From: an uncultured Eubacteriales bacterium
Lineage (GTDB): Bacteria > Bacillota > Clostridia > Monoglobales > CAYZNM01
Length of the DNA: 64,000 nt
Assembly: GCA_964479875.1 (NCBI GenBank)
Contig: CAYZNM010000016.1
Span: forward strand, 412 to 64,411
Direction of reading: 5' to 3'
The notes beneath the pieces were generated by a model. It made no database searches. It saw only the letters and a program-made list of their open reading frames with translations, and was not told where the DNA came from. Of this stretch, positions 23,585 to 38,451 are shown piece after piece (positions within the stretch are counted from its first letter, which is position 1; every line of letters begins with the position of its first letter). The position numbers and the translations under genes were made by a program.

Positions 23585-23618
23585 AAAACAGGCATTGTCA
23601 AGGTGCAATGCCTGTTTT
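23585..23618 (-). terminator. Terminator of the glycan operon, overlapping the -35 of the azoreductase promoter
   Basis: AAAACAGGCATTG-N8-CAATGCCTGTTTT. TTGACA (23601-23596) and TATAAT (23579-23574) with a 16-bp spacer. Confidence 0.65.
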
Positions 23619-23629
23619 GATTTGGGCAA

Positions 23630-24535
23630 TCAGTCTTTTTGGTAAACTCTTACATATTCTATTTCCATGAGGTAGGGGAGCATTGCGTCGTCGATTTCGC
23701 CGCCCCAGTTGCCGCCCACTGCTATGTTTAGGATTAGGTAGAAGGGTTTGTCGAACGGCCAGCCACCTACGCCTATGTCGGAGCCGTCTACGCCTTTGGT
23801 GAAGCGTTTTACTGCTCTGCCGTCGTAGAAAAACTCGATGTATTCGGGCGTCCACTCGAATGAGTATTCGTGCGCGGTGTCGAATACGTCGGTGAGACGC
23901 TCGAAGTATGTGCGCTGCGTGCCTTTTATATGATTGTAGAGGGAGGTGTGTAGGCTCACGTGTACCATATTTTCGTCTTTGCCTACATGCTCCATTATGT
24001 CGATTTCGCCGCATAACGGCCACGGCGTTGGTGTTTCACTGCGAATGTCATCGGGTAGCATCCATATTGCAGGCCATGTGCCTTTGCCTTTGGGGAGCTT
24101 TGCTTTAATCTCGAATTTGCCGTATTTCCATGATTGACGCTCGAAGGTGGTAAGGCGTGCAGAGGTGTAGTTTTTGCCTTCTTTTTCTTCCTTGATTGCT
24201 TTGATGAACAGGCTTCCGTCTTTCACGTAGGCGTTGGCTTCTTCGTCTGTGTAGTATTGGCTCTCGTTGTTGCCCCAGCCGTGGCCGCCTATGTCATAGT
24301 TCCATTTTGTTGGGTCGGGCTTTCCTTCGTAGTCGAACTCATCAGACCACACTAATTTGTATTCGCTCATTAAATCCTCCTGTGGCTCGTCGCCTTCATT
24401 TATAATTTCCTCCGACGCAGGTTCTTCCTCCTGCGGCGTTTGTTCCGGGTTTAATTCCTCTTTCGGAGATACATCGGCTTTGCAGCCGCATAACATCGCG
24501 GCGCAAACAATTCCCATGATTAAATACCTCAACAT
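23630..24535 (-). CDS. GH16 beta-glucanase (laminarinase-like) lipoprotein
   Basis: Real start MLRYLIMGIVCAAMLCGC (lipobox), acidic linker, LVWSDEFD, WPAIWMLP, catalytic EIDIME and PFYLILN.AVGG.WGG. Confidence 0.92.
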   Translation of the reverse strand: MLRYLIMGIVCAAMLCGCKADVSPKEELNPEQTPQEEEPASEEIINEGDEPQEDLMSEYKLVWSDEFDYEGKPDPTKWNYDIGGHGWGNNESQYYTDEEANAYVKDGSLFIKAIKEEKEGKNYTSARLTTFERQSWKYGKFEIKAKLPKGKGTWPAIWMLPDDIRSETPTPWPLCGEIDIMEHVGKDENMVHVSLHTSLYNHIKGTQRTYFERLTDVFDTAHEYSFEWTPEYIEFFYDGRAVKRFTKGVDGSDIGVGGWPFDKPFYLILNIAVGGNWGGEIDDAMLPYLMEIEYVRVYQKD

Positions 24536-24585
24536 TGTCACCTCCGCGATTTGTGCAGAATCAGCGGAACGCATAAATGCGTTCC

Positions 24586-25521
24586 CTATTCGCCTGTTAT
24601 TCCTGCCGATTCTATGCCTTCTACAAAGAATTTTTGCAGAATCAGGTACAGTACAACCAATGGCGTAATCGTCAGGATTGTTCCTGCCATACGTATGCTT
24701 TCGTTTATGCGATTGGCTTCGCTGCCTTCGGATGCGGGGTACATCTTGGTGAACTCCGCTACGAAGCCTTGCAGGCGCAGCGGCAGCGTCGTTATCGCAT
24801 TGCCTACATACATAGAGAGCTGCGAGGTTTCGTTCCAGTACCACACGAATGAGAATAGTATCGACACAACTATTGTCGGAACTGCCATAGGCAGTGCTAT
24901 GCGGAAGAATATGCGTGCGCGGGAAGCTCCGTCGATTTCTGCGGCTTCGTCCAGCGACTTCGGGTATGTCTTAAAGTATGAGAAGAATATGAAGATGAAG
25001 ATTGTGCTTTTGATTCCCTGACCCAATATCGCAGGCAGGTGAATTATAAGCGGATTGCCGATTAAGCCGTAGCTGTTGTACAGCAAATACTTGGGCACGA
25101 GCATAACGGGCGTGGGCACTAAGAATGCGGCAAGTGCCATTACGAACCAGAAGTTTTTAAGCGGGAACTCGAAGCGTCCGAATGCGTAGCCTGCCAGCGC
25201 GGCTGTCATCGTTTGCGTGATGGTTGGCAATACAACGTAGCTAACTGTCGCGATCAGTGTTGAAAAGTAGGCGAGTACGTTGAATGCCTTGGTGTAGTTG
25301 CCGGTGTAAAACTGCGTCGGCACCCAATCCACGGTCGGGTTTATTAAGTCTGCCGTGTCCATGAATGAGTTTACAAGCATATACAGTACAGGGTAAACGT
25401 ACGCAAAGCCAATGCCTAGCAGTACGGCGTATATCACAAGCTTGAATATCAAGCCGCCGTTTTTGCCTTTACCCGAAACGGCAAGCTTCTTAACCTTGTC
25501 AAGAATAATCCCAGTTGTCAT
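24586..25521 (-). CDS. Carbohydrate ABC transporter permease
   Basis: EAA motif LDEAAEIDGAS; six hydrophobic segments. Confidence 0.93.
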   Translation of the reverse strand: MTTGIILDKVKKLAVSGKGKNGGLIFKLVIYAVLLGIGFAYVYPVLYMLVNSFMDTADLINPTVDWVPTQFYTGNYTKAFNVLAYFSTLIATVSYVVLPTITQTMTAALAGYAFGRFEFPLKNFWFVMALAAFLVPTPVMLVPKYLLYNSYGLIGNPLIIHLPAILGQGIKSTIFIFIFFSYFKTYPKSLDEAAEIDGASRARIFFRIALPMAVPTIVVSILFSFVWYWNETSQLSMYVGNAITTLPLRLQGFVAEFTKMYPASEGSEANRINESIRMAGTILTITPLVVLYLILQKFFVEGIESAGITGE

Positions 25522-26387
25522 TTTATCCTCACCTTCTTATCCTTGAGCAGCAGGAAGGCGACGCCGATTACTGCAAGCACAAAGAGGAAATAAATCCATG
25601 CCATCGCCGATGAGTAGCTGTAGACCTTGCCTACAAGCGTCATCTTCTTTGTTATCTCTGTGTTGATTTCGTTGTTGGAGAAGCTTGCAAGCTCCGCAAG
25701 GGTGTATATTGTGTTGATGAGTATCAGTGGCTTGATAAAGGGCAGGATTATCTTCCAGAATATTTGCCAGCCGCCTGCGCCGTCGATCGACGCGGCTTCG
25801 TATATGCTGCCGCCGATTTTCTGCAAGCCTGACAGGTATATCAATATCTGCACACCGGAGAACCATAGTATCAGCACGAGGTTGTCGAACACGAATATCA
25901 GTGCGTCTGATAAAAGATTCGGCGGCAAGTTTTTCAAAAATTGGTACACCATGTACTTGCCCGGAATAATAATCGATGTCGCGTTGTTCTGTATAAGCTC
26001 ATTGATAACAGGGCCGCTTATGATTATTACAGGGAAGAAGAATATCGCACGGAAGAATGTCTTGCCGTGGAATTTTTGATTTAGCATGATTGCGATTATC
26101 AGCGAGGATATGACAATCATCGGCGTCGACAGCACTACGAATTGCAGCGAATTGATCAAGCTCACGCTGAAGGTTGTGTCCACGCGGAATGCCTCGTAGT
26201 ACCACTGCAAGCCTACAAAGTCATACTCAATTCCCGTCGGCGACAGCGTGAGGTTGTTAAGGCTTATAAATATCGAAAAGACGAAGGGGTACAGCGTGAA
26301 CACAAAGAATCCAATCAGCCACGGCAGCAAAAAGAGGTAGCCGGACAATGCGTTGCGCGCTTTAATCGTGAGGGATTTTTGCTTCAT
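25518..26387 (-). CDS. Sugar ABC transporter permease
   Basis: YEAASIDGAG.WQIFWKI.LP motif. Confidence 0.93.
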   Translation of the reverse strand: MKQKSLTIKARNALSGYLFLLPWLIGFFVFTLYPFVFSIFISLNNLTLSPTGIEYDFVGLQWYYEAFRVDTTFSVSLINSLQFVVLSTPMIVISSLIIAIMLNQKFHGKTFFRAIFFFPVIIISGPVINELIQNNATSIIIPGKYMVYQFLKNLPPNLLSDALIFVFDNLVLILWFSGVQILIYLSGLQKIGGSIYEAASIDGAGGWQIFWKIILPFIKPLILINTIYTLAELASFSNNEINTEITKKMTLVGKVYSYSSAMAWIYFLFVLAVIGVAFLLLKDKKVRIK

Positions 26388-26389
26388 TG

Positions 26390-28633
26390 TTACCTCCTAT
26401 CCTTTACCGCGGCAGATAGTGCGGGGATTGTTACGCCGGCGTGTGTCACCTGCGATTCCGTGTAGTTTACGTAGATGTCTTTTCCATTTGAATAACTAAC
26501 CACTGTTAAGCCGGAGCGCGGTATGTCGCGGTTTATGATTGTTGCGCCTTCGACCTTTGACAGCACACTGTTGATTTTGTTGTATGCGTCCTTTATTCTG
26601 TTTTCCCAGTCCTCAAAGCATGTTGAGTTGTAGTCGGTCACTGTTGTTTTGAATATCTCGTGGTTTTTAAGCTGCGTCATAACGAAGGCGGGGTATGTGC
26701 CGTAGTCGATGTGCTTTAGTATGTCGGTCGCTGTGTGGAAGTCGACATTGCTGTAGGGCGCGAATATGTCGACGTAGCCTTTAAGCACGATTTGCAGGAA
26801 CGGCACTGTGTCGGTTTCGTACATATACTGCCCATTGGACATCGGCGCGTTGTAGAAGCCGTCGATGTATTCCCACATAAAGGCATTGGGTGCGCTTATG
26901 CCTAGGTATTGTGCGTTCGTGTTGCTTATGCTGTTTTTGTACATCTCCTTAACGTCGGAGCGTACGTTTATCTCGCTCTTGTAGTGGTTGCTGTACAGCC
27001 TGTCGCCTACTGATGAGAGCATTAGTCCTAGGCCTTCATCTTCCGATAGCTTGCCTGCTTTGTCGATTATCTCGACGGTTAAGGCAGGTTTTAGGAAGTA
27101 GGAATCCATCTTGAATAGGTTGTGGTTGTACTTCCAAACGGATATGGGCGACTGCGATACGGTGATTGTGCCTTCGCGGCGTATGTCGAGCTGTCCGTCT
27201 TTTGCCATCAGCGGGTCAAATGCTAGAGAGAATACCCCTTTGCCTTTTAGTAGGTCTGCTATCGCTGTGATGTCGGATTTCTTGCCTGTCTGCGGATTTA
27301 GCTTGACTTCCTTCGGCTTGCTGCCTGATAGGCCGCCGTTTTGCCAGCCTAGCAGTGCGACGTTGAGGTTGGTAATTCCACCGCTCATTATATCGTTTAC
27401 GCTTTCTTTTACAAAGGGAAGCGATGTGATTTTTTTGGTGCTGTCGAATATGAAGCCGCTTTCGCGGTCGGCGCAGATGAAGTCGAGTTTTAGCGGAATG
27501 TCGCCGGATTGCTTGCGCTGCTTTAGTACGCCCAGTTCGATTAACTCCTGCTGATACAAGAGAGCCATGCCGACGTAATCTGCTTTGTCGCCTGTCAGCA
27601 GCTTAAACTCAAGCTTTGCTTCGACAGGATTGCGCGTCTTTTGCACAACCTGTATACCTGAGCCGCTTTTTTCGGTGGGGAGCTGATACTTCTGCCGCAG
27701 GATAAACTTCGCGGCAACCCAGTTGTAGTCTGTGGTTACGCCGCTCGGGGTCGCCATTATGCTTGCGTATTCCTCGCCGCTTTTAATTTGGGCGAAAAAT
27801 GCGTGCTGCTTTGTTCCATGCACCATGCCGAATACAGGCATGAGAACAGTCGGCTCATCGGTTAAAAATTCGTTTAAGCGAATGGAGCGTAAGTTGTTCA
27901 GCACTTCTGTGCTTTCTATGCCGAAGTCGCTGCCGTAGACGCGCTTCTCGAATCCTTTGAGGTAGCTGGAGATTGAGGAGAAGCGTATTAGTGCGCCGTT
28001 TCCGTCCGGCACGAACATATAGCCCGGGATTTCATTGCCTTGGGTTGTGCCGAGGAATGGCAGGAAGTATAGCGACGATATTGTGTAATCGCCATCCTCC
28101 TTCAAGGAGTTATGGCTGAATGTGAACACGAGACTGTCGCTGCTCATCTCCATCTCGAATGTGAAGCTTATCGAGAGCGGCTCGATGTTTACGTCGAACA
28201 GCAGCTTGCTTCCGCTTTTTTTCATGCTCACTTTCGCGTCGGAGTGACCTATGCCCATCGATTTTTCGTTGCCTGTTTTGTCGTAGTAGCTGATTGCGGC
28301 AATTGAGTTGCCCATCGACGCCCAGGTCGAGTTCATATTGTCGGGCTTGTCGGAGCTTACGCCGCCCCAAATGTAGCCGGAGCGTTTGTCTAAAACTCGT
28401 ACCGCTGCCGTTTGCTCGCGGAACCAAAACTGCATGATGTCGTTTTCCATCATCAAGTTGAAGCCTTCTGTCGAGAGGTAATTCTCCTGCTTTACGAAAG
28501 CAGGCTCGGTCAGCGTGAACCTGTTCGACTTTAGCGTACGGTCCGCGCCTTCTGCGAAGGCAGATGTTGCCAGCAGCATAATCGCAAGCAGCAACGCTGC
28601 TGCTTTACCTGCATATCTTTTAAGCGGCGACAT
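26390..28633 (-). CDS. DUF5696-like secreted protein
   Basis: Signal peptide; GYMFVPDG.GALIRF, MPVFGM, GWQ.GG and PFLQIVLKGY...PYSN motifs; typical position between Yip1/NHL genes and permeases. Confidence 0.75.
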   Translation of the reverse strand: MSPLKRYAGKAAALLLAIMLLATSAFAEGADRTLKSNRFTLTEPAFVKQENYLSTEGFNLMMENDIMQFWFREQTAAVRVLDKRSGYIWGGVSSDKPDNMNSTWASMGNSIAAISYYDKTGNEKSMGIGHSDAKVSMKKSGSKLLFDVNIEPLSISFTFEMEMSSDSLVFTFSHNSLKEDGDYTISSLYFLPFLGTTQGNEIPGYMFVPDGNGALIRFSSISSYLKGFEKRVYGSDFGIESTEVLNNLRSIRLNEFLTDEPTVLMPVFGMVHGTKQHAFFAQIKSGEEYASIMATPSGVTTDYNWVAAKFILRQKYQLPTEKSGSGIQVVQKTRNPVEAKLEFKLLTGDKADYVGMALLYQQELIELGVLKQRKQSGDIPLKLDFICADRESGFIFDSTKKITSLPFVKESVNDIMSGGITNLNVALLGWQNGGLSGSKPKEVKLNPQTGKKSDITAIADLLKGKGVFSLAFDPLMAKDGQLDIRREGTITVSQSPISVWKYNHNLFKMDSYFLKPALTVEIIDKAGKLSEDEGLGLMLSSVGDRLYSNHYKSEINVRSDVKEMYKNSISNTNAQYLGISAPNAFMWEYIDGFYNAPMSNGQYMYETDTVPFLQIVLKGYVDIFAPYSNVDFHTATDILKHIDYGTYPAFVMTQLKNHEIFKTTVTDYNSTCFEDWENRIKDAYNKINSVLSKVEGATIINRDIPRSGLTVVSYSNGKDIYVNYTESQVTHAGVTIPALSAAVKDRR

Positions 28634-30662
28634 GGAACATTACCTCCTTGAAGATAGAGTAGATTAGGTTGATTATTTGATCCCAGAACATCTGAATCAT
28701 CGAGAACACCAGTATTACAACGCACATGAAGAATACTGTAAGCAGTATGTTCTTGAATATGTCCCCGAATTCATAGTCGTGTATTTCCCTCAAGCCGACG
28801 ATTACTTGTATTGCTGTCCAGCCGATTAGTACGGTTGTCGGGAATGTCACGAGGAATATCTCGTTATTCGTTATAAAGTGCGACGCTATTATTACGACAG
28901 GGGCGAATATTATGAACGGCGACAGTGCGTATGCCGTGAGTACGTATACATCGCGGAAGCGTCCCTCGCCTTCGTTGATGGAGCTTACCATGTAGTTGCA
29001 GACAATCCATAGCCCAATCGGGAGGAAGAATTGCTGCGCCAGCATCATAAGCGGCACTTTGCTTGCGTCGTCAGAGTTTACTATAAAGCCTTTGCCTAGC
29101 ATGAACCAGCAGAATATTACAAAGCCTATAGCATATAGCAAAGTCGCAGACTTTGCACTGCCTTGCAGGTCGTGGCGTATGTCGTAGTAGCTGTCGAATG
29201 GGTGACGGATAAAGCTTTTGGTGAAGATGATGTCGCTGACAAATCTGTTGCTGCGCAGCTTTTTCATGAACTTGCGCATGGGGTTTAGTATGCCTTTGCG
29301 TTTGTCGATTGCGCCGAGTATCTTCAATAATATATACAGCAGCAGTATGGATAGGATAATGTATCCAACGTTTGAGGTTATCCACTCGTTGCGGATTTCC
29401 CAATAGGCGTTGGAGTAGCCGCCTTGCTCGCCTGCTATTTTGTAGTTTTCCATCGCTTGCTCGAATTGCTGCGTTTGGAAGTAGCAGTCGGCTATGCCTA
29501 GGTGGGTTATCTTGGTGCTGCCGCTTTCTTGCAGGACGTTTTCCCAGATTGCGCGGCTTTCGTCGTATTTGCCTTGTTCGTATAGGCTTATCGCGGTATG
29601 AACGGATTTGGCAAATTCGGTCGGCGCGAATACGTGAACCTTGGCGCGTTCTTTGTCCAGCACGTACAAATTATCGCTGTCATCTACTGCGATAGCGGAT
29701 ACTAACGTGAACAAGCCGTTGCGCTCTACTGCTAACGCTTGACCGCCGAAGGAGAATACTAGATTGCCGAAGTTGTCGTACTCGAAAACTAAGCCGTTTT
29801 CGTTTACAACATAAATTTGTCCGTACCGCCCGATTGTTATGTCGGCGATGTTGTAGTCGGCGACCATAAAGTTTTTCTCAAGCATGTCTACGCCGGCGAT
29901 GTTGTGCTTTTTGATAGGACGCTCACGGCTGTTTGAGCCATAGGTTACAGAGTAGAGCAAGCCGCGATTGTCGCGTGCGACATTGCTGAATGCGCGCGGG
30001 ATTTTGTTAAACAATCGTTCCTTCTGCTCGTCTGAAAAGAATGTTTCCTGCAATAGCTCGATTAATGTGAGCGGCACTTGATTGTAGCCGAAGTAGCCTA
30101 AAAATTCGCCGTCCGGCGCAAGCTGAATTATTCCGTCGAACGAACCTTCGCCCACTAGGTAGACAATGCCTTTTTCATCGGCGGTAATTTTCATCGGGCG
30201 ATAAACGTTGTTTTCGCCGTAGGTAACAGTGGTGGGGCGGGGGTATTCGCGCAACAGCTCGCCCTCGCTCGAGAACATGAACGCTTTTTCTAAGCCCATG
30301 TCGGCAACGTAGATGTTGCCGCTTTGTGTCACGTATACACCTGTCGGCATCGACAGTACGTCAGAGCCGAAAGCGGTAATTTCGCCCGTTTCAAGGTCGA
30401 GTATAACAATTTCGCCGTGACCTGTATCGGTGACATACAGCTTGTTACCGCGTACATATAAATCCTCCGGCGACGATAGGCTATAGTCGCCGAACAAGAT
30501 TGAATCAACAAGGTAAGCGTCCTTGGTTTTCATCCAATACCAATCGGCGGACAGCGTGTAGGTGTACGCCGTAGCGTTAACCGCGCCGACTACCGTCGGA
30601 GCAAGCAGCATTAATGTGAACACAAACGCCATTGCGGCGCAAATAATTCGTAATCTTCTCAT
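28620..30662 (-). CDS. NHL-repeat + TPR + Yip1 membrane protein
   Basis: Signal peptide, repeated P.D/G.YV....IYVAD beta-propeller blades, helical TPR-like segment, C-terminal 5-TM Yip1-like domain (RHPFDSYYDIRH...EGEGRF). Confidence 0.8.
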   Translation of the reverse strand: MRRLRIICAAMAFVFTLMLLAPTVVGAVNATAYTYTLSADWYWMKTKDAYLVDSILFGDYSLSSPEDLYVRGNKLYVTDTGHGEIVILDLETGEITAFGSDVLSMPTGVYVTQSGNIYVADMGLEKAFMFSSEGELLREYPRPTTVTYGENNVYRPMKITADEKGIVYLVGEGSFDGIIQLAPDGEFLGYFGYNQVPLTLIELLQETFFSDEQKERLFNKIPRAFSNVARDNRGLLYSVTYGSNSRERPIKKHNIAGVDMLEKNFMVADYNIADITIGRYGQIYVVNENGLVFEYDNFGNLVFSFGGQALAVERNGLFTLVSAIAVDDSDNLYVLDKERAKVHVFAPTEFAKSVHTAISLYEQGKYDESRAIWENVLQESGSTKITHLGIADCYFQTQQFEQAMENYKIAGEQGGYSNAYWEIRNEWITSNVGYIILSILLLYILLKILGAIDKRKGILNPMRKFMKKLRSNRFVSDIIFTKSFIRHPFDSYYDIRHDLQGSAKSATLLYAIGFVIFCWFMLGKGFIVNSDDASKVPLMMLAQQFFLPIGLWIVCNYMVSSINEGEGRFRDVYVLTAYALSPFIIFAPVVIIASHFITNNEIFLVTFPTTVLIGWTAIQVIVGLREIHDYEFGDIFKNILLTVFFMCVVILVFSMIQMFWDQIINLIYSIFKEVMFHVAA

Positions 30663-30673
30663 CTATAATCACC

Positions 30674-31555
30674 TTATTTTATACCGGAATGCGCCATCGT
30701 GTTCATTACGTTTGATTGCAGTATGACGAATAGAATCAGATTCGGCAGGAACATTATAAGCGAAGCTGCCGCCGATATTCCCTGCCCTGCGAGTGTATTG
30801 CCCCCCGAAGCTGTGGAGGACAGTGTCGACATGTAAAACGCGAAGGTCTTTAGATTTTCTTGATTGATAAACATAGTGGACGCTTCCACCGAGTTCCACG
30901 ACGCTTGGAACGAAAGTATCGCAACCGTCGCAATCGCAGGCTTGATTATCGGAATGACTATCTTCCATAAGATGTAGTAGTCGCTTGCGCCGTCGATTGA
31001 CGCCGCTTCAACTAATGCCGAAGGGAATTGGTCGATGAATTGTTTTATCAAGAATAAGCCTACGGGCATTGCAAGCATTGGCATGACATGCGAAAAGAAA
31101 TTGTCAAGCAGACCGAGCTGCTTTATAACTAAGTATCGCGGAATCGCTACCGCTACCGCAACAAACATCATGGAAAGCGTGTTCATCTTGAAAACTAACG
31201 CCTTGCCCTTGAACTCCTTCTTCGACAAAACATAGCCTGCCGAAACCGAAAAGATGATGGACAGCAGCATTACAAGCGCGGTTGAAATCAAGCTGTTAAA
31301 TATATACAGCGACATAGGCTGCGCCGATTCGCTTGCGGCGTAAAACAGCTTCTTGAAATTGTCAAGCACAGGCCGCAGCGTGATAAATCGCGGCGGGTAT
31401 GCGAACAATTCGTCAATCGGCTTAAACGCGTGAAATATGATGAAAACAATCGGAAGCAGCATGAATAGCGCGAAAGGCACTATTATAAGGTAAAACTTAA
31501 TCTGGCTTCTCTCAAATTTGTCAGGGTTTATTTTTATAGTCCTAAGCGTTGCCAT
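30674..31555 (-). CDS. Carbohydrate ABC transporter permease
   Basis: LVEAASIDGAS and IKPAIATVAIL.FQ..WN motifs. Confidence 0.93.
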   Translation of the reverse strand: MATLRTIKINPDKFERSQIKFYLIIVPFALFMLLPIVFIIFHAFKPIDELFAYPPRFITLRPVLDNFKKLFYAASESAQPMSLYIFNSLISTALVMLLSIIFSVSAGYVLSKKEFKGKALVFKMNTLSMMFVAVAVAIPRYLVIKQLGLLDNFFSHVMPMLAMPVGLFLIKQFIDQFPSALVEAASIDGASDYYILWKIVIPIIKPAIATVAILSFQASWNSVEASTMFINQENLKTFAFYMSTLSSTASGGNTLAGQGISAAASLIMFLPNLILFVILQSNVMNTMAHSGIK

Positions 31556-31574
31556 TATGTCAGTCCCTTCTGGA

Positions 31575-32486
31575 TTAATCGGAGAACAGCTTGTATGAAA
31601 CCTTGGAGGCTAGCCATATTATGCCTAGCAATATAGTTGACAACGCCGCGGCGTAACCCATTTCGTAACGCAGGAAGCCGAAGTCCTCGATGTGGTTTAC
31701 GATTAATTGCGCCGAATACAACGGAGTTGGGTTCGAGCCTGAAAGCGCGACGCCTATTCCGGCGGAGTTAAATGTACCCACAACAGCCATTACCGCGCCG
31801 AAAAGCATTTGCGGCTTTATCATGGGGATTGTGATGTAGAATACCTCCTGCAAGCGATTCTTCACTCCGTCGATGTAGCCTGCTTCGTATACCTCGGCGT
31901 CGACGTTGAGTATGCCGCTTAGCATTGCCAAAAAGCCTACGCCCATGCTCGACCACAGTGCGACAATTATAACAATAGTCATTAGGTAATCAGGCGATTG
32001 CAGCCATATCACAGGCTCTTGTATTACGCCCATTCGCAGCATGAAGCTGTTGAGGTAACCCAATCTGTCGCCGGAAAATATTACGCCCCACAACGTAGTC
32101 ATAGTAACGCCAGAAGTCATCGAGGGCGAATATATGATTACGGCGAGAATAGTGCGCGGCACTTTTGTAAGCTGCGCAAGCACCCATGCCAAAAAGAACG
32201 ACAGCATGTATCCGCCCGGGCCTATAATTAGTGCATACATTACTGTGTTCGGCAGTACCTTCTGCATGAACACCGAATCCTGTGTGAGGATTGAGATGTA
32301 GTTCTTCAAGCCTACAAAGCTCGGAAACTGTACGGAGTCAAACTTAGTCACCGACAGACCAATCGCAATTATAACAGGGATCACGATGAAGAATGTAAAT
32401 GTCAAGAAAAATGGCGCAAGCATGACATAATGCGAATGATTATTTAAAAATGCCTTAACATTGCCCATAAGTGTTTTCTTTTTCAT
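31575..32486 (-). CDS. Sugar ABC transporter permease
   Basis: YEAGYIDGV...QEVFYITIP.IKPQMLFG and HIEDFGFLRYEMGYAAALS. Confidence 0.93.
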   Translation of the reverse strand: MKKKTLMGNVKAFLNNHSHYVMLAPFFLTFTFFIVIPVIIAIGLSVTKFDSVQFPSFVGLKNYISILTQDSVFMQKVLPNTVMYALIIGPGGYMLSFFLAWVLAQLTKVPRTILAVIIYSPSMTSGVTMTTLWGVIFSGDRLGYLNSFMLRMGVIQEPVIWLQSPDYLMTIVIIVALWSSMGVGFLAMLSGILNVDAEVYEAGYIDGVKNRLQEVFYITIPMIKPQMLFGAVMAVVGTFNSAGIGVALSGSNPTPLYSAQLIVNHIEDFGFLRYEMGYAAALSTILLGIIWLASKVSYKLFSD

Positions 32487-35197
32487 TGGCTCACCCCTAA
32501 GATTTCGGCAGGGGTTAATATTTTATAGTCCCTGACCTTTACGCCGTCCTTGATGTAGCCGAATTCGTCCAGCTTGCGTTCGATTTCGCGATTGATGTTG
32601 ATTGCGGCGCTATCCATAGCGACGCGTGCGCTCCAGCCTTGGTCGACTACGTTTATCCACGCGCTTGTTAATTCGCGCTCGAGCAGGTATCCGGCAGGAT
32701 GCCTGGGCACTTCTATAAGCTCGCTCCATTGTTGCAGGATTACGTCCTTGTGCTTTTGCGGCATTTGCAGCTTGTCGAAGGCTTTTAGGTTGCCGGGATT
32801 GTACATATACTCGGGGCCGAACTTTGTTTGCATCGAGTAGCTGTATTCCGTCTGCGTGTCCTCGCTAAGCCACCACTTCAAAAATTCCCACGACTCCTGC
32901 TTCATCTCGGAGCTTTCAAAGATAACGTTTGCACGTTCTGCCGCGGTGTAGCTGCGGTTAATGCTGCCGTCGGGACGACGCGTGCCGGGTGCGATTGCTA
33001 TATCCCATCGCCCTGCTATTTCAGGCGCGGCATTCACAAGCTTAACATATTCCGCGAAAGCGCACACGCCGATCGGCACCGTGCCGTAACGGAAGCTATT
33101 GTAAAAGTTTGGTATATTTTTTTGCAGCGCGTAGTTGCTGTACAGGTTGGTCAATGTTTCAAAGCCTTTTATTGATGCTTCGGAGTTTATCAGCGTTTTA
33201 AAGCCGTCCTCTGAATAAATCTCGCCGCCGTTTTGGAAAATAAAGGGGGTTGTGCTGTACAGCGGCTTATTACCTGTCCATTGCGACAGCGGAATAAACA
33301 TATTCATTCCGTTGCGGCGCAGCACCGGCATTAGGTCTGCCACGTCGTCCCACGTTTCGGGAATCTCAATGCCTAAATCCTCGAGTATGTCTGTGCGATA
33401 TATCAGGACGAAGTAGTCCATTGTGTCAATCGTGCCGTAGATTTTTCCGTCGAACACAAAGGTTTGGAAGGCGTTTATGTTAAACTGACCTTCCATGAAA
33501 TCCTTGAAATCAGGGAATTGCGTGAAGTCGGTTATCGCGCCGCGCAGCGCAAGGTCGTAAGGCGTAGCCGCCCACAGTCCCATTGCAACATCGGGTGAAG
33601 TTGCCGACGCATTCGACAGTATCAGCTTTTGCTCATTCGGCATGATGGAGAATTTCACGTTAATGCCTGTGTTCGGCGTAAACTTTGAGTCTGCCAAAAC
33701 TTGCATTTGCTCTACGTACTGTATCGTTCGGTTAACCCATACGTTGATTTCGCCTTCGCTTTTCACGTCCGCCGTGTATTGGTTGCGCGGGCTGAATATC
33801 GACATGAAGAAGCGTTTCACGCCTTCGGCAAGGCTGCTGAAAAAGCCTTCCTTTGCAGGGGGGAGTTTCTGACCGTTGCTAATATACAGCCTGTCGACGG
33901 AGAGGTTTTGCAGCTCTGCATCGGTGATAAAGTCAGCAATCATCTGCGTAACCGAGCCGCTGCCTTGACTTAACAGGTTCAGCTTCGCCGGAATCTTCTT
34001 CGGCTTCTCTAAGATTGTGTTGAGAGCCTTTGATGCAAGGTTTAATGTGGTGGACGCTTTGGGGTTGCCCTTATAGGTTGCGGTAAAGTTCTTGTACATG
34101 TCCGCAAGCTCATTCTTGTAGCCTTCCAATGTGGAAATAAGCCCCGGGATATAGGTTTCGATGTCCCAGCTTCTGTTTGCTACAACGCTTGTGCCTGCTA
34201 TCTTGCCGATCTCAAGCCCTATGTCGGAGATGTCCTCCAATATTTCGTACGCCCTATCTATATAGGAAGAAATAGGTGCGCCGTCCAGCATTATGCGTAT
34301 GGTGTGGCTGCCCTTTTCAAGGTAAATCTCGTACGGACTATCGCCGCCCAAAGTCATATTCTCGTATTCCACGCCTGTGTACGGGAATGCGTACGAATAC
34401 AGCTCCTCAAACGGAATCTCGCCGTCGATAAACACGCTGCCGAATACAGGCATGTTCTGCTTTTCCGTTTGCGAATACCTTAGCGTGACATTGTAAAATC
34501 CGCTGCTGTCCACATCAAATTGCCACTCAACCCACTGTCCACTGTCTTTGAAGGATTTTGGGTCGATGACGTTGAGTAGCTTTGCGTCAAGCTGATACGG
34601 ATACAGAGCTTTGTTTTGCACGCTTTTCGGGCGAATAAAAGAATCCGACTTGGACGAATATTTTTCGGCTTCTATTATTACATAGCTATCCCCTGCGCTT
34701 CCCGAATGCGACGACAGATATTGTTGATAATTCGGCAGGGTTTTAGGTGCGACAGCGTAGATGTCCTGCACCTCTATCGCTATCTTTGAATTATGTATTG
34801 TTATTGTGTTGCTGCCATTTTTTAGGTAGAAGGTCGCGGGAGATTTGTTGGTGGATACGCTGTTTCGCATTAACGTTGTCTGCAGCTCTTTGATAGTTTG
34901 CTGGTCAGGCAATGCGTCGTTGCCGTAGCGGTCTTTTGAGTATGTTTCTTCTTCATCTTTCCACAGCGAGTTAAGCTCAACGACAGTTTCGCTGCCGTTG
35001 CACACTACTGTTATCGGACTGTTCAGCAATATGTCTTCAAGCGGCTGATAGGTTATAGCAAGGTTGTATTCGCCGTCGGCAGGTGCTTCCACTGTAACTT
35101 CGGCCGTGCCGTTGCTGTCTACGACAAGGCCTTCGGCGAAAGCTGTCGCGGTGCATAGCAGAATCGCCAACGCAAAAGCTGCAAGTAATTTCCTCAT
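32483..35197 (-). CDS. Large multidomain solute-binding protein (CBM-like N-terminal domains + C-terminal sugar-binding domain)
   Basis: 904 aa, signal peptide, IEAEKY and W.F.V...G.Y....RY.Q beta-sandwich signatures, helical linker, C-terminal SBP (PDVAMG, YRTDILE.LG...PETWDD). Confidence 0.82.
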   Translation of the reverse strand: MRKLLAAFALAILLCTATAFAEGLVVDSNGTAEVTVEAPADGEYNLAITYQPLEDILLNSPITVVCNGSETVVELNSLWKDEEETYSKDRYGNDALPDQQTIKELQTTLMRNSVSTNKSPATFYLKNGSNTITIHNSKIAIEVQDIYAVAPKTLPNYQQYLSSHSGSAGDSYVIIEAEKYSSKSDSFIRPKSVQNKALYPYQLDAKLLNVIDPKSFKDSGQWVEWQFDVDSSGFYNVTLRYSQTEKQNMPVFGSVFIDGEIPFEELYSYAFPYTGVEYENMTLGGDSPYEIYLEKGSHTIRIMLDGAPISSYIDRAYEILEDISDIGLEIGKIAGTSVVANRSWDIETYIPGLISTLEGYKNELADMYKNFTATYKGNPKASTTLNLASKALNTILEKPKKIPAKLNLLSQGSGSVTQMIADFITDAELQNLSVDRLYISNGQKLPPAKEGFFSSLAEGVKRFFMSIFSPRNQYTADVKSEGEINVWVNRTIQYVEQMQVLADSKFTPNTGINVKFSIMPNEQKLILSNASATSPDVAMGLWAATPYDLALRGAITDFTQFPDFKDFMEGQFNINAFQTFVFDGKIYGTIDTMDYFVLIYRTDILEDLGIEIPETWDDVADLMPVLRRNGMNMFIPLSQWTGNKPLYSTTPFIFQNGGEIYSEDGFKTLINSEASIKGFETLTNLYSNYALQKNIPNFYNSFRYGTVPIGVCAFAEYVKLVNAAPEIAGRWDIAIAPGTRRPDGSINRSYTAAERANVIFESSEMKQESWEFLKWWLSEDTQTEYSYSMQTKFGPEYMYNPGNLKAFDKLQMPQKHKDVILQQWSELIEVPRHPAGYLLERELTSAWINVVDQGWSARVAMDSAAININREIERKLDEFGYIKDGVKVRDYKILTPAEILGVSQ

Positions 35198-35213
35198 AAT
35201 TACCTCATTTTAT

Positions 35214-35242
35214 AAAAGGGCGGCAGTTTTTGCCGCCCTTTT
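35214..35242 (-). terminator. Intra-operon stem-loop/terminator after first SBP gene
   Basis: AAAAGGGCGGCA-N5-TGCCGCCCTTTT, a perfect 12-bp stem. Confidence 0.75.
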
Positions 35243-35261
35243 GCGTTTTATTTTTTCTATC

Positions 35262-36776
35262 TTACTTAAACTTAGCTTCTAGTTCAGCCCATTGAACCTT
35301 AAATTCAGCGTTAACCTTATCCTCTAAATCCTTCGCAACCGCAGAAGGATTGATTTTGCCTGTTACGAGGTCTTGCAGTATAGGCTCGAGGTGAGGGTTA
35401 ACGAGTGCGGCGATGTCTACAGTTATCTTGTTTGTGTCGCCACGCGGTGCGTTGCCCATGTTTTCATGCATGAACCATTGTCCGGGCAGGGTGTTCTTCG
35501 CTTCCTTCAGCTTTGCAATGATGTCCGGATGTGTTGAGGACGGGAAACCAACTGCGTCATGTGTGATGTTTTCGTTGGGGGTGTTGATTGCAACTTCGAT
35601 AGAGTCGATTGTGCCTTCCTTGCCGTAGGATTTATACTTCATAAGCTCGAATGCCGCTTGTCTGTTTTCATCTTTAACAGCTGTTGTGATGAATGCGTAG
35701 TTTGCGTGAACAGGGTTTCTGTAGCCTACGCCGGGCATTTGGGGATATGGGTAGTAGTCCCAATTAAACGGAAGTGTGCTGTGCCAGCCGCCGCGCTCCC
35801 ATGTTCCGTCTATGTGGAATAATACCTTGCCTTCACGCAGAGCGTCAGCGTCCTTGCCGAATTTCTTTTGGTAGTCGTCCATCATTCCGTTGTCCGTTAA
35901 TGTTGCGTCCTTCATTTCGTCGGAGATGAGGCCTTTGATGCTCTTTAATTCTTTAACGTAGTTTATGCCTTTTTCAAATGCGCCCGATGTGTAGTCGAAG
36001 GTGTGTGTTTCGGGGTTGTATACGTCCATCCATAATTTGTCAGATGATGTTGTTGCGAATGTGTTCCATAAGTTCCATGTGTGTGTTAAGCCCGAGGTTG
36101 TGTCTGTTGTTGCTTTTTTTGCAAGGCGCATGAACTCGTCGATCGTCCAGTCGTATGCAGGCGGGTCTTCGTTCATGGATTCAAGCATGTCGAGGTTTAC
36201 GATGATTGCGTTGTGCACTGTACCCCACGGAGCCGCATACACCTTGCCGCCGTATGAGAATGAATCCCATAAAGCTTTGGGAACATATTGAGCTTCGTCG
36301 TCCTTCTCAAGCATGTCGGATATAGGTGAAATCCAGCCTTGTGAGATGAAGAAGCCGAGTGAATCCCAGCCTTGAACTACGTCGGGCAATTGACCTGCCG
36401 CTGCTGCTGTCGTTAAGTATTGTGTAAGACCTTCCCAACCTACATAGGCGGAAACATTGACTGTTATGTTCGGATATTTTTGTCTGAATAGTTCCAGCTG
36501 AGCTTTTTCGTCAGCTTCAAGGTCGCCCCATGTGGGGAAGCAGTATGATATTGTGCCTGTAACGTCCGCGGGATTGATTGCGGCCGGAGCTTCTTCCTCC
36601 TGTGTTTCGGGTTCTGCTGTTGGGTCAGGCGTTGTTGTTGTGGAATCAGTTGCGGTTGTGTCTTTGGTAGGGGCAGGCGTAGCGGAATTAGATGAACCTC
36701 CGCCTGTACATGCTGTAAGCATTAGCACCAATGCGCACATAAGTGCGGCAAAACTTTTTATTGCTTTCATAAACAT
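35262..36776 (-). CDS. ABC transporter sugar-binding lipoprotein
   Basis: Lipobox LTAC, Thr/Pro/Glu linker, F..KYPNI.V, LPDV and PPAYDWT.DEF. Confidence 0.92.
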   Translation of the reverse strand: MFMKAIKSFAALMCALVLMLTACTGGGSSNSATPAPTKDTTATDSTTTTPDPTAEPETQEEEAPAAINPADVTGTISYCFPTWGDLEADEKAQLELFRQKYPNITVNVSAYVGWEGLTQYLTTAAAAGQLPDVVQGWDSLGFFISQGWISPISDMLEKDDEAQYVPKALWDSFSYGGKVYAAPWGTVHNAIIVNLDMLESMNEDPPAYDWTIDEFMRLAKKATTDTTSGLTHTWNLWNTFATTSSDKLWMDVYNPETHTFDYTSGAFEKGINYVKELKSIKGLISDEMKDATLTDNGMMDDYQKKFGKDADALREGKVLFHIDGTWERGGWHSTLPFNWDYYPYPQMPGVGYRNPVHANYAFITTAVKDENRQAAFELMKYKSYGKEGTIDSIEVAINTPNENITHDAVGFPSSTHPDIIAKLKEAKNTLPGQWFMHENMGNAPRGDTNKITVDIAALVNPHLEPILQDLVTGKINPSAVAKDLEDKVNAEFKVQWAELEAKFK

Positions 36777-36792
36777 TCTCCTTTCTGATTAT

Positions 36793-36844
36793 TGAAACGT
36801 TTTTAATCTAAAACAAGTATAGCATAATATTTCCATGCTGTCAA
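36793..36844 (-). promoter_or_regulatory. Glycan operon promoter with downstream LacI-type operator
   Basis: TTGACA (36844-36839), 17 bp, TG-N-TATACT (36821-36816); operator-like TGAAACGTTTTTAA at 36793-36806, just after the predicted +1. Confidence 0.8.
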
Positions 36845-36930
36845 CAATTATTTTTAGTGCAATGTGACTGACAGTTATGCACATTATACATGTTTTATTC
36901 AATGTTACTTACCATTTTATAATTTAATCT

Positions 36931-36944
36931 TGTAACGTTTTCAC
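36931..36944. promoter_or_regulatory. Second LacI-type operator candidate
   Basis: TGTAACGTTTTCAC: central CG palindrome with the same AACGTTTT core as the other two sites. Confidence 0.6.
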
Positions 36945-36960
36945 ATTTCGGTAAAAAAAA

Positions 36961-37968
36961 TTACCTATTTACAAGAGTCTGTTTTATCCCTGCCGACTTT
37001 CGCACTATTAGCTCTGTTTTTAAGAAGGATACGTCGCCCTTTGTGCTGCCTTCTAACATGGAAACGAGCTTTTTCACCGAGGCTATTCCCATTATCGAGT
37101 AGGGGTTTGCGATAGTTGTAAGCGGCGGCGCGGTATATTGCGCGGCGGGAATGTTGTCGAAACCGACAACGCTTATATCAGTCGGAACCTTCATGCCGAG
37201 CGACTCCAGCGCAGATATGCAGCCATCTGCCATTTCATCGTTTGCGGCAAAGATTGCGTCCGGCACGCCGCCTGTTAATCGATTGAAATATTCCCTTATT
37301 GAATTATATGCTTGGAACTTATGGTAGTTGCATTGGAAAGCGTTGTCCATAAATGGCTGTAGGTTAAATTCGTTGAGGCATTGAAGGTAGCCGCTGTAGC
37401 GCGTGCGGTTGTCGTAGTTGTTTTGCCCGTGGATGTACAGGATTTTTTTGTGCCCCAGCTGTACAAGATGCTTGGTTGCGTCGTATGCTCCGCCTTTGTT
37501 GTCGATTACGACCGAGCCGATTTTGTCTGCGCATTCTTCCCTGTCGATAAATACCACCGGGAATTTTTTTGCGTGCAGCTTTTCGACATCGTGGCCGCTG
37601 AATCTGTCGCTTGATAAAATAGCTCCGTCCACGAATCCGTTCATCACAAGGTTTGCTACGTTTCTTTCGTCCGATGGCAGTAATTGGATTAGCACATTAT
37701 AGCCGAGGTCGATTCCTGTGTGCGATGCACTTTGCAGGAATATCGAGTAAAACTCACCTGCAAGGCTTTCAAGGTAAATTCCGATTTTCTTTTGCTTCGT
37801 CTTTTTCAAGCTCTGGCCGTGTACGTTTGGTACATACTTTAAGGCGCGTATTGCTTCATATACTTGCTCCTTCTTTTCGTCCGACACAATTTCGGGACGG
37901 TTTAGCACGTTTGATACTGTCGAAACGGCGACGCCTGCGTGCTTTGCTACATCTTTTATCGTTATCAT
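36961..37968 (-). CDS. LacI-family transcriptional regulator
   Basis: MITIKDVAKHAGVAVSTVSNVLN HTH; PDAIFAANDEMA, VP.DISVVGFDN and PPLTTI. Confidence 0.96.
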   Translation of the reverse strand: MITIKDVAKHAGVAVSTVSNVLNRPEIVSDEKKEQVYEAIRALKYVPNVHGQSLKKTKQKKIGIYLESLAGEFYSIFLQSASHTGIDLGYNVLIQLLPSDERNVANLVMNGFVDGAILSSDRFSGHDVEKLHAKKFPVVFIDREECADKIGSVVIDNKGGAYDATKHLVQLGHKKILYIHGQNNYDNRTRYSGYLQCLNEFNLQPFMDNAFQCNYHKFQAYNSIREYFNRLTGGVPDAIFAANDEMADGCISALESLGMKVPTDISVVGFDNIPAAQYTAPPLTTIANPYSIMGIASVKKLVSMLEGSTKGDVSFLKTELIVRKSAGIKQTLVNR

Positions 37969-37991: not shown

Positions 37992-38020
37992 ATTATAACG
38001 TTTTTATTGAGGCAGGTCAA
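37992..38020 (-). promoter_or_regulatory. lacI-gene promoter with overlapping operator (autoregulation)
   Basis: TTGACC (38020-38015), 17 bp, TATAAT (37997-37992); ATAACGTTTTTA at 37995-38006 overlaps the -10 and spacer. Confidence 0.75.
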
Positions 38021-38040: not shown

Positions 38041-38451
38041 CTATAAATTTTTTCGGGAGCGTTTATTCAAAATGCAAACCAATACACTTGCCAATGAGAA
38101 GATTGCATAGAGGATTGCTGCGTAAAAAAATACCTGCATAAGATCTTTTTCTAAATCCAATGAAAACCATCCGGGGCTTCTAATGCCTTTCGTTGTATTC
38201 AATAAGTAAAAGATTAGATACAATATCGTCATTGCTATTATGGGTTCAATCAGCAGTTTTATCCTTTTCCATTTATAGGCAATGAAAAAATATAGCACAT
38301 GGATGATGAAAATTTCAAAAGCAAACAGGAGGTTACCCGAACTGCTAACACCTGCGAAATAAACAATAAGATTCAATAAAGCCGCTAAATAGATGGTTAT
38401 CCATTCGGTTAGCGATAATATGATGACTGCAAGGACACTAATCTTCTTCAT
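38041..38451 (-). CDS. Hypothetical small membrane protein, AT-rich
   Basis: 136 aa, about 4 hydrophobic segments, visibly AT-rich. Confidence 0.65.
   Translation of the reverse strand: MKKISVLAVIILSLTEWITIYLAALLNLIVYFAGVSSSGNLLFAFEIFIIHVLYFFIAYKWKRIKLLIEPIIAMTILYLIFYLLNTTKGIRSPGWFSLDLEKDLMQVFFYAAILYAIFSLASVLVCILNKRSRKNL

Follow-up and report, generated by a model that had tools for sequence, protein, structure and literature searches.

A conserved eight-gene cassette encoding two ABC importer modules, an NHL-TPR-Yip1 protein and a DUF5696 protein, and its probable role in beta-1,3-glucan uptake by an uncultured Eubacteriales bacterium

Research on the gut microbiome and on biomass has yet to explain how large glycans are captured and imported by bacteria without SusCD, and the question is raised in a particular form by ten genes on the minus strand of a 64,000-nucleotide stretch (the window) from an uncultured Eubacteriales bacterium (assembly GCA_964479875.1, 34 contigs, 2.7 Mb, 95% complete; contig CAYZNM010000016.1). 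The genes run head to tail from position 37968 to position 23630 and encode a LacI-family repressor, a substrate-binding protein (SBP1), a second and much larger one (SBP2), two permeases (P1 and P2), a membrane protein with an NHL propeller, tetratricopeptide repeats (TPR) and a Yip1 domain, a DUF5696 protein, two further permeases (P3 and P4) and a glycoside hydrolase (GH) of family 16. The eight genes from SBP1 to P4 make up a cassette, three components of which are without known function. As a whole, the explanation that we favour, with confidence slightly better than even, is a LacI-controlled beta-1,3-glucan operon built on one of seven paralogous cassettes of this genome. The cassette is best read as a single unit that imports long glycans and has uncharacterised accessory subunits; both complex and accessory roles are proposed from sequence comparison, and our confidence in the individual roles suggested below for DUF5696, NHL-TPR-Yip1 and SBP2 is much lower.

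The locus is a ten-gene operon bounded by a promoter-like site at one end and by a terminator-like hairpin at the other. Gene junctions are overlaps of 4 to 14 nt or gaps of at most 64 nt (4-nt overlaps at SBP2-P1 and P3-P4, a 14-nt overlap between the NHL-TPR-Yip1 and DUF5696 genes and a 2-nt gap between DUF5696 and P3). A preliminary description, made from the letters of the window, had listed this gene run, including LacI, and had stated that the locus lacks an ATPase; all ten genes were found on the minus strand, overlapping or closely spaced, and domain annotation gave no ABC (ATP-binding cassette) ATPase gene within 23630-37968. The same description spoke of two permease pairs with two SBPs, a CBM-like (carbohydrate-binding module) N-terminus of SBP2, a GH16 of beta-1,3(4)-glucanase type and a DUF5696-like protein; the first three were confirmed by the domain and structure comparisons given below, and in the last the relation to DUF5696 stood while the word 'like' proved too weak, as the protein is a full member of PF18952.

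The order SBP1, giant SBP2, P1, P2, NHL/Yip1, DUF5696, P3, P4 was identical in 5/5 inspected neighbourhoods (an uncultured Defluviitaleaceae metagenome-assembled genome, Clostridium thermarum, Fervidobacterium, Paenibacillus spongiae and Caldilinea). A scan with one genome per species gave 552 DUF5696-encoding stretches, from which 80 loci were kept, and the order from SBP2 to P4 was seen in every locus with enough flank; because it recurs identically in all of these related loci, the arrangement is far beyond chance. DUF5696 relatives were found in Clostridia, Bacilli/Paenibacillus, Thermotogota and Chloroflexota, and the cassette spans the phyla Bacillota, Thermotogota and Chloroflexota. At E ≤ 1e-30, DUF5696 was present in 104 of 400 sampled Clostridia genomes (61 of 217 genera), and an exhaustive search gave 4,007 clusters of the family at 50% identity. 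The arrangement is thus widespread, as the preliminary description had supposed; its phrase 'Gram-positive analogue' fits the Bacillota carriers but not the Thermotogota and Chloroflexota that carry the cassette too.

Because its seven copies here and the related loci adjoin differing glycan enzymes, the cassette is a substrate-generic platform that is re-used once per glycan. The seven full cassettes take up approximately 3% of the 2.7-Mb genome, each with a different enzyme set: GH16 and LacI at the copy in the window (contig C16), GH94, GH35-like, GH144-like and LacI on C10, two GH29 and LacI on C1, GH130, GH26, GH31 and LacI on C13, GH38 on C8, GH106 and GH13-like on C5, and GH30, GH4, DUF4838 and AraC on C7. 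All giant SBPs (7/7) and all NHL/Yip1 open reading frames (ORFs; 9/9) of this genome fall inside cassettes. Genes flanking the cassette in the related loci encode GH31 (29 loci), LacI (21), GH3 (13), GH16 (11), GFO/IDH oxidoreductases (10), GH144-like PF10091 proteins, GH35-like proteins and GH65 (7 each), SOGP-type GH94 (6), GH66, GH13 and GH2 (3 each), and CE2 or GDSL esterases (up to 3). As a separate observation, the GH94 phosphorylase gene at the C10 cassette (C10:43181-44392) is a candidate for splitting imported beta-gluco-oligosaccharides. A further GH94 domain lies inside a 2,693-aa open frame (C3:176371-177663) that resembles cyclic beta-1,2-glucan synthases in size and domain, so that a genome with a cyclic beta-1,2-glucan synthase-like ORF also has a beta-1,2-glucan-type cassette on C10.

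Frames overlap across loci at SBP2-P1 (58/63), NHL/Yip1-DUF5696 (69/72, median 14 nt), DUF5696-P3 (53/77) and P3-P4 (60/79), counts that are upper bounds as starts were called mechanically, and the spacing between SBP1 and SBP2 has a median of 66 nt. Because frames overlap within the two groups and SBP1 stands apart from SBP2, this pattern suggests two production units, [SBP2-P1-P2] and [NHL/Yip1-DUF5696-P3-P4], with a separately dosed SBP1. In the second unit the DUF5696 gene holds the position at which an SBP gene normally precedes the permeases, and the gene with the Yip1 domain always lies between the two permease pairs in related loci with enough flank. Divergence increases in the order P1/P2, P3/P4, NHL/Yip1, SBP2, DUF5696, SBP1, a ranking that fits SBP1 as the main specificity determinant; P1 is the most conserved component (mean p-distance 0.37). 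Partial correlations of the mirror-tree matrices mainly split fast extracellular from slow membrane proteins.

All four permeases fit MalF/UgpA- or MalG/UgpE-type models, and the EAA loop is intact in 4/4. P1 (31575-32486, minus strand, 303 aa, MalF/UgpA type, PF00528) has the loop EAGYIDG and P2 (30674-31555, minus strand, 293 aa, MalG/UgpE type, PF00528; UgpE, E = 6.5e-22) has VEAASIDGAS. P3 (25518-26387, minus strand, 289 aa, MalF/UgpA type, loop YEAASIDGAG) stays under the Pfam cut-off for PF00528, yet it is matched by the UgpA (E = 2.9e-11) and GlcT models, and P4 (24586-25521, minus strand, 311 aa, MalG/UgpE type, loop DEAAEIDGAS) matches PF00528 at E = 4.5e-15. By these sequence features the membrane module of a type I importer is present twice in complete form, as P1/P2 and as P3/P4. 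The genome holds exactly one MalK/MsmX/UgpC-type ATPase gene (contig C6:129758-130885; PF17912), which scores 487 bits against NF008653 of the UgpC/MsmX subfamily (cut-off 432), alongside approximately 53 CUT1-type permease ORFs detected by BLAST, and from this gene content we infer that the C6 ATPase serves the locus. The sharing of one ATPase among importers is the usual Firmicute pattern, and MalEFGK2 and the MsmX-dependent systems of Bacillus subtilis are examples of the CUT1 family (TC 3.A.1.1). The locus agrees with CUT1 importers that share an orphan MsmX/MsmK ATPase in its family-1 SBPs, its MalF/MalG-type EAA heterodimers and the position of the ATPase gene outside the operon; it differs from them in the two permease pairs per operon, the 900-aa CBM-bearing SBP and the NHL-TPR-Yip1 and DUF5696 genes, and we know of no described CUT1 system in which the latter two occur as extra genes.

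SBP1 (35262-36776, minus strand, 504 aa, lipobox LTAC) had no Pfam match and a weak NCBIfam match to MalE, and it is a homologue of three SBPs of solved structure, 22hh, MalE1 and Lmo0181. Its best match in the PDB, a distant one, is 22hh (Chy400_4166; E = 1.4e-16, residues 31-280), and on this homology window SBP1 is assigned to the Chy400_4166 family. The article on this protein (Kato et al., FEBS J 2026, PMC13731917; PDB 22HH-22HL) describes Chy400_4166 as an SBP of Chloroflexus aurantiacus Y-400-fl that binds cyclic beta-1,2-glucans having a degree of polymerization (DP) of 17-20 at 1:1, the Ka for DP20 being approximately 3e7 per M, and that holds ten glucose units in a pocket described as relatively open; a linear glucan of DP121 takes approximately four proteins per chain. 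Its gene belongs to the beta-1,2-glucan cluster Chy400_4165-4178, described there as containing two type I ABC transporter gene sets and the two SBPs 4166 and 4167 (PMC13731917). The SBP1 of the Caldilinea cassette, in which DUF5696 and NHL/Yip1 are present, is a close orthologue of Chy400_4166 (E = 4.6e-186); the GH144-like, LacI and GH35-like genes that flank the Chloroflexus cluster flank the Caldilinea cassette as well, and the six genes between 4167 and the secreted GH144 gene 4174 equal the count expected from the cassette. Because of the Caldilinea SBP1 orthology and the six-gene count, the Chloroflexus cluster is almost certainly a beta-1,2-glucan version of the cassette, as judged from these sequence relations. 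The DUF5696 gene of C. aurantiacus was not among the 120 matches listed for homologues of Caldilinea DUF5696, and text searches of PMC13731917 turned up no NHL/Yip1 or DUF5696 genes. The substrate of the Chloroflexus cluster is beta-1,2-glucan, whereas the enzyme linked to the present copy is a GH16 laminarinase.

For comparison of the residues holding sugar unit G, 48 cassette SBP1s were aligned to Chy400_4166. The equivalent of K419 was Lys in 48/48 and that of W308 aromatic in 48/48, W74 was Trp in 22/48, and D336 was Asp in 33 and Asn in 14 of the 48; window SBP1, distant as its similarity to 22hh is, has W, W, N and K at the positions of W74, W308, D336 and K419. The Asn at the D336 position also occurs in all ten GH16-linked SBP1s of Thermotogota. 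The sole biochemical clue on the cassette, newly linked to it here, is the binding of cyclic glucans of DP17-20 and of a DP121 glucan by an SBP1-type protein, sizes far beyond those that ABC sugar importers usually handle. A literature search gave no paper that names DUF5696, and a search for Yip1/NHL combined with ABC transporters or glycoside hydrolases returned nothing relevant. The proposal in the preliminary description of an 'undescribed multi-protein system' therefore stands as far as DUF5696 is concerned, but is weakened by the structure, solved in 2026, of the SBP1 orthologue from the Chloroflexus version (PMC13731917).

The GH16 protein (23630-24535, minus strand, 301 aa, PF00722, lipobox MLCGC) is a laminarinase-type enzyme, as seen from its sequence relatives. 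Its best match in the PDB over the whole catalytic domain was 3iln, the laminarinase LamR of Rhodothermus marinus (E = 2.2e-78), followed by approximately 20 further beta-1,3-glucanases or laminarinases with E < 1e-40, and its catalytic motif EIDIME is of the ExDxxE beta-bulge type. It differs from LamR in being a lipoprotein with a 40-residue acidic linker, encoded by the last gene of a cassette operon. A 404-aa version of the ORF that overlaps P4 was rejected as an artefact of taking the first start codon; the start was placed at 24535, where the product begins with MLRYLIMGIVCAAMLCGC, a lipoprotein signal. This gene is the sole GH16 gene of the genome, and because it adjoins the cassette the present copy is most likely for beta-1,3-glucan of the laminarin type. 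The substrate named in the preliminary description is accordingly retained as far as the adjoining laminarinase carries it, with the reservation that the cassette itself is substrate-generic and GH16 alone ties this copy to that glycan.

SBP2 (32483-35197, minus strand, 904 aa) consists of two CBM6/35-like beta-sandwiches, a helical bundle and a family-1 SBP domain. The SBP domain was recognised by SBP_bac_1/8 (PF01547, PF13416) at residues 497-787, above the cut-off, and is closest to Lin1841, a sophoro-oligosaccharide binder of Listeria (E = 6e-20); in the N-terminal part Pfam gave a weak CBM35 match at 215-256. Residues 1-485 were modelled with AlphaFold2 (AF2) at a predicted local distance difference test score (pLDDT) of 90.5 as two sandwiches and the helical bundle, and Foldseek matched the sandwiches to CBM35 (2vzp and 2w1w, template modelling score (TM) 0.70) and CBM6 (8j3x, root mean square deviation 2.4 Å). 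A lipobox is present in nearly all SBP1s of Bacillota cassettes, and a hydrophobic N-terminus without lipobox was found in SBP2 (40/51) and DUF5696 (57/68). SBP2 of the window likewise had no lipobox, and its signal peptide and that of DUF5696 both end in AFA-EG. Since these two proteins have no lipobox, their retention at the cell would require either a partner or an anchor that is not cleaved off.

For DUF5696, such a partner may be the NHL-TPR-Yip1 protein (28620-30662, minus strand, 680 aa; PF01436, TPR, PF04893), in which NHL propellers of the PDB were matched at E = 3e-10 and PF04893 at E = 1.2e-11. A signal peptide is followed by the NHL propeller and TPR, a transmembrane helix at 434-452, a strongly basic loop and five transmembrane helices at 505-656, and from this order of signal peptide, helix and basic loop the propeller and TPR are predicted to face outward. 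In the cassettes C1, C5 and C8 one ORF encodes the propeller, TPR and anchor and a second ORF the Yip1 part, with an overlap of the two in C1 and C5, and in the window both parts are fused; this fusion and fission argues that the two parts act together. A precedent is YknW of B. subtilis, a Yip1-family protein that joins the ABC transporter YknXYZ as an accessory subunit and influences its assembly (Yamada et al. 2012, reviewed in PMC4338810). A Yip1 membrane protein is encoded with an ABC transporter in both cases, and here the association is putative. YknYZ belongs to the MacB-type exporters and works with a membrane-fusion protein, and YknW is without an NHL/TPR ectodomain, whereas the partners here would be type I importers.

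The DUF5696 protein (26390-28633, minus strand, 747 aa, exported) matched PF18952 at E = 5.3e-156 (model 15-611 of 612), its only Pfam match. An AF2 model from a 59-sequence alignment (pLDDT 90.8, predicted TM score (pTM) 0.91) shows a (beta/alpha)8 barrel flanked by one beta-sandwich at the N-terminal and another at the C-terminal side. In a Foldseek comparison, which the preliminary description had proposed as a check against GH folds, GH129 enzymes came out best (5opq/8rzk, ZgGH129, E = 1.7e-33, TM 0.62-0.71; NagBb, 5wzn), followed by GH101 and GH36. GH129 chains were also at the top of a sequence-profile search of the PDB, if marginally (E = 0.007-0.03), and hhalign against an alignment of nine GH129-like sequences collected with PF11308 gave a probability of 96.6% in local and 98.9% in global mode. 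The GH129 family model PF11308 did not match the DUF5696 protein in the Pfam search.

The catalytic residues of GH129 were mapped by the route from 5wzn over a GH129-like protein to the DUF5696 profile (hhalign). In NagBb the nucleophile is reportedly D435 (in AYLD) and the acid/base E478 (in SSE; Sato et al. 2017), and the letters at these positions fit. D435 aligns to Ser540 of window DUF5696, in a column that is Asp/Glu in 42 of 82 relatives, and E478 to Pro582, in a column that is Pro in 72 of 82; R454, which follows the nucleophile strand in GH129, corresponds to R558, which is invariant. Across the 82 relatives no change is seen at E179, D210 and D236; D608 is Asp in 81 with a single Glu, and position 643 is occupied by Asp or Glu throughout. 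In the seven paralogues of this genome none of these 'invariant' acids is identical in all, only 643 is always acidic, and Arg558 is the sole examined residue constant in 7/7. Position 549 (codon 26987-26989) had been considered as the nucleophile on a naive offset (Asp/Glu in 93%) and was rejected, as hhalign puts the nucleophile at 540 and leaves 549 non-catalytic; it is Asn in the window and Asp/Glu in 76/82 relatives, and the Asn recurs in two Fervidobacterium proteins and one Oscillospiraceae protein. DUF5696 thus has the domain order of the GH129 enzymes NagBb (alpha-N-acetylgalactosaminidase, 5WZN) and ZgGH129/DagB (3,6-anhydro-D-galactosidase, 5OPQ/8RZK), but differs from them in its lack of a Pfam GH129 match, in Ser at the nucleophile column and in Pro at the acid/base column, so that the fold is that of GH129 while membership of the family is rejected. 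Because the GH129 catalytic pair is not conserved and the acids vary among paralogues, DUF5696 is more likely a pseudo-glycosidase with a binding or structural role than a catalyst, and the 'trimming' envisaged in the preliminary description is doubtful for this protein. As a side observation, many Clostridia encode a frame of approximately 570 aa that matches only approximately 190-612 of the DUF5696 model (E ~1e-40) and looks like a separate, N-terminally shorter subfamily.

Taken together, these elements are compatible with the following course of uptake. The GH16 lipoprotein, going by homology, would cut beta-1,3-glucan at the cell surface, and the SBP1 lipoprotein would bind internal stretches of long chains as judged from Chy400_4166, the sole characterised member of its family. 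SBP2 might hold the polymer with its two CBM6/35-like modules while its SBP domain serves P1-P2, as the gene overlap suggests. The NHL-TPR-Yip1 protein could be a membrane scaffold whose outward propeller and TPR hold the DUF5696 protein, itself without an anchor, at P3-P4, a role suggested by the overlapping frames, by fusion and fission and by the YknW precedent, and DUF5696, with its GH129 fold, may bind, orient or gate the glycan chain rather than hydrolyse it. From gene content, the single orphan MsmX/UgpC-type ATPase would power both translocators, and the imported oligosaccharide would presumably free LacI from AAAACGTT-type operators. The surface complex and the hand-over of glycan between its parts are proposed from synteny, overlapping frames and fusion/fission only.

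Several observations weigh against this account. GH1 and GH3 were both absent from the 95%-complete assembly, so that the cytoplasmic breakdown of imported laminari-oligosaccharides is unaccounted for; Chy400_4167, the Chloroflexus orthologue of SBP2, shifted with no polysaccharide tested, as reported in PMC13731917; mirror-tree distance matrices left the pairing of SBPs with permeases unresolved, as all correlate at 0.83-0.95; and SBP2 and DUF5696, with their AFA-EG signal peptides, could simply be secreted. In addition, the strongly conserved E179, D210, D236 and D608 of close DUF5696 relatives are compatible with catalysis. They favour, with the acidic position 643, the view that DUF5696 has glycoside hydrolase activity, represents a new GH129-related family and trims captured chains at the membrane so that both importers take the products. 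The extracellular location of the protein, its full three-domain GH129/GH101/GH36-like fold, modelled with high confidence and joined by profile homology, and the Asp/Glu in half of the nucleophile-aligned column (42/82) speak for this as well. The window protein has Ser540, however, the acid/base column is mostly Pro, the 'invariant' acids change among the seven paralogues while only Arg558 is kept, and cassettes accompany enzymes for alpha- and beta-linked gluco-, manno-, fuco-, rhamno- and xylo-glycans, linkages so varied that one shared DUF5696 chemistry is improbable; we regard an active hydrolase as unlikely. The opposite extension, in which the eight genes would encode one supramolecular importer that takes up very long or cyclic glycans (DP of approximately 17 or more) whole and without SusCD, is bolder and we hold it to be unlikely. 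In it the Yip1 scaffold would join two ABC translocators, the NHL/TPR ectodomain would dock a catalytically dead DUF5696 that, in place of an SBP, forms the lid through which the chain is fed to the second translocator, and the CBM-bearing giant SBP2 and the Chy400_4166-type SBP1 would capture the polymer.

A plainer possibility is that two ordinary, independent CUT1 importers, for instance for short and for long oligosaccharides, are encoded in one operon together with surface proteins of unrelated function and form no joint machine. Both permease pairs are complete and canonical, the two pairs are matched by two SBPs, and the Chloroflexus cluster is called simply two type I ABC transporter sets by the authors of PMC13731917; but the strict order, with the accessory genes always between the pairs, is kept in three phyla at 25-50% identity, the frames from NHL/Yip1 through DUF5696 and P3 to P4 overlap, giant SBP, NHL/Yip1 and DUF5696 occur at 7 : 7 : 7 in this genome, and NHL-TPR and Yip1 form one fused protein in some cassettes but are encoded apart in others, which makes independence quite improbable. 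Highly improbable, finally, is a function of the NHL-Yip1/DUF5696/P3-P4 half as a 'transceptor', meaning a sensor, or as a means of recycling or exporting cell-envelope glycans, and not mainly as a nutrient importer. Interaction modules of a generic kind are what NHL propellers and TPRs represent, YknWXYZ, the Yip1 partner known from bacteria, belongs to the exporters, and P3 matches its permease family weakly, whereas both P3 and P4 have EAA loops and fall among the type I importer permeases (BPD_transp_1), the neighbours are catabolic GHs, phosphorylases and LacI/AraC regulators, and glycosyltransferase or export genes were not linked to them.

With the single import unit as the preferred reading, the locus is a CUT1-based Gram-positive-type polysaccharide utilization locus (PUL) with obligatory novel accessory subunits. 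Enzyme, transporter and regulator are co-located, as in other Gram-positive PULs (gpPULs), since GH16, both ABC systems and LacI are encoded on the same strand. The gpPULs of Roseburia and Eubacterium rectale treated by Sheridan et al. 2016 reportedly have single ordinary ABC, MFS (major facilitator superfamily) or PTS (phosphotransferase system) transporters; they resemble the present locus in the co-location of regulator, transporter and glycan enzyme and in the presence of several loci of different specificity per genome, whereas the invariant eight-gene core of the cassette lies outside the gpPUL definition. With the SusCD systems of Bacteroidota there is a functional analogy only, in that a generic capture and import core is re-used per glycan together with surface binders and an endo-enzyme. 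The locus is without a TonB-dependent transporter, SusD, an outer membrane or homology to these systems, its energy would come from ABC ATPases, and domain searches with the ten locus proteins gave no match to the SusC or SusD families, so that membership was rejected. If the accessory trio enables the uptake of long glycans, it would represent a new ABC-importer architecture and a marker to predict glycan use by Firmicutes, and a pseudo-glycosidase or GH family new to science might come with it. The cassette is carried by cultivable bacteria, among them Paenibacillus, Neobacillus, Metabacillus, Fervidobacterium and Clostridium thermarum.

Regulation was considered from the upstream regions. 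The operon promoter region (36790-36950, minus strand) contains, ahead of SBP1, a sigma-70-like promoter at 36844-36816 (TTGACA-17-TATACT with TG extension) and two candidate LacI operators, AAAACGTTW at 36933-36941 and 36795-36803. A second promoter-like site lies at 38020-37992, ahead of the gene for the LacI-family repressor (36961-37968, minus strand, 335 aa, PF00356 and Peripla_BP_1/3), and the AAAACGTTA site at 37996-38004 sits within it. The number of AAAACGTTW sites in the 64-kb window is not enriched (3 observed against 2.1 expected), but their confinement to these two promoter regions is notable, and because all three lie upstream of lacI or SBP1 they are regarded as candidate LacI operators, which if correct would imply autoregulation of lacI. 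Between SBP1 and SBP2, a GC-rich hairpin with a 14-bp stem (35213-35243), terminator-like on both strands, is probably a partial terminator or mRNA stabiliser that permits an excess of SBP1 over the transporter. The operon is closed by a terminator-like hairpin at 23585-23618 (minus strand), with a 13-bp stem followed by a T-run.

Further ORFs were noted at the borders of the cassettes. A conserved protein of approximately 1,090 aa with no Pfam match is encoded on the same strand 3' of the cassette in nine loci (e.g. L053:18135-21407, Thermotogaceae). At the nearest relative locus (L007:14932-17991), a 1,019-aa protein without Pfam match follows GH16 and has no counterpart in the window. Within the window, a 136-aa ORF with no Pfam match (38041-38451) lies between lacI and the ilvA-like gene. 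The flanks are unrelated to the operon and consist of ilvA- and ilvB-like genes upstream and flavodoxin-like and URO-D genes downstream.

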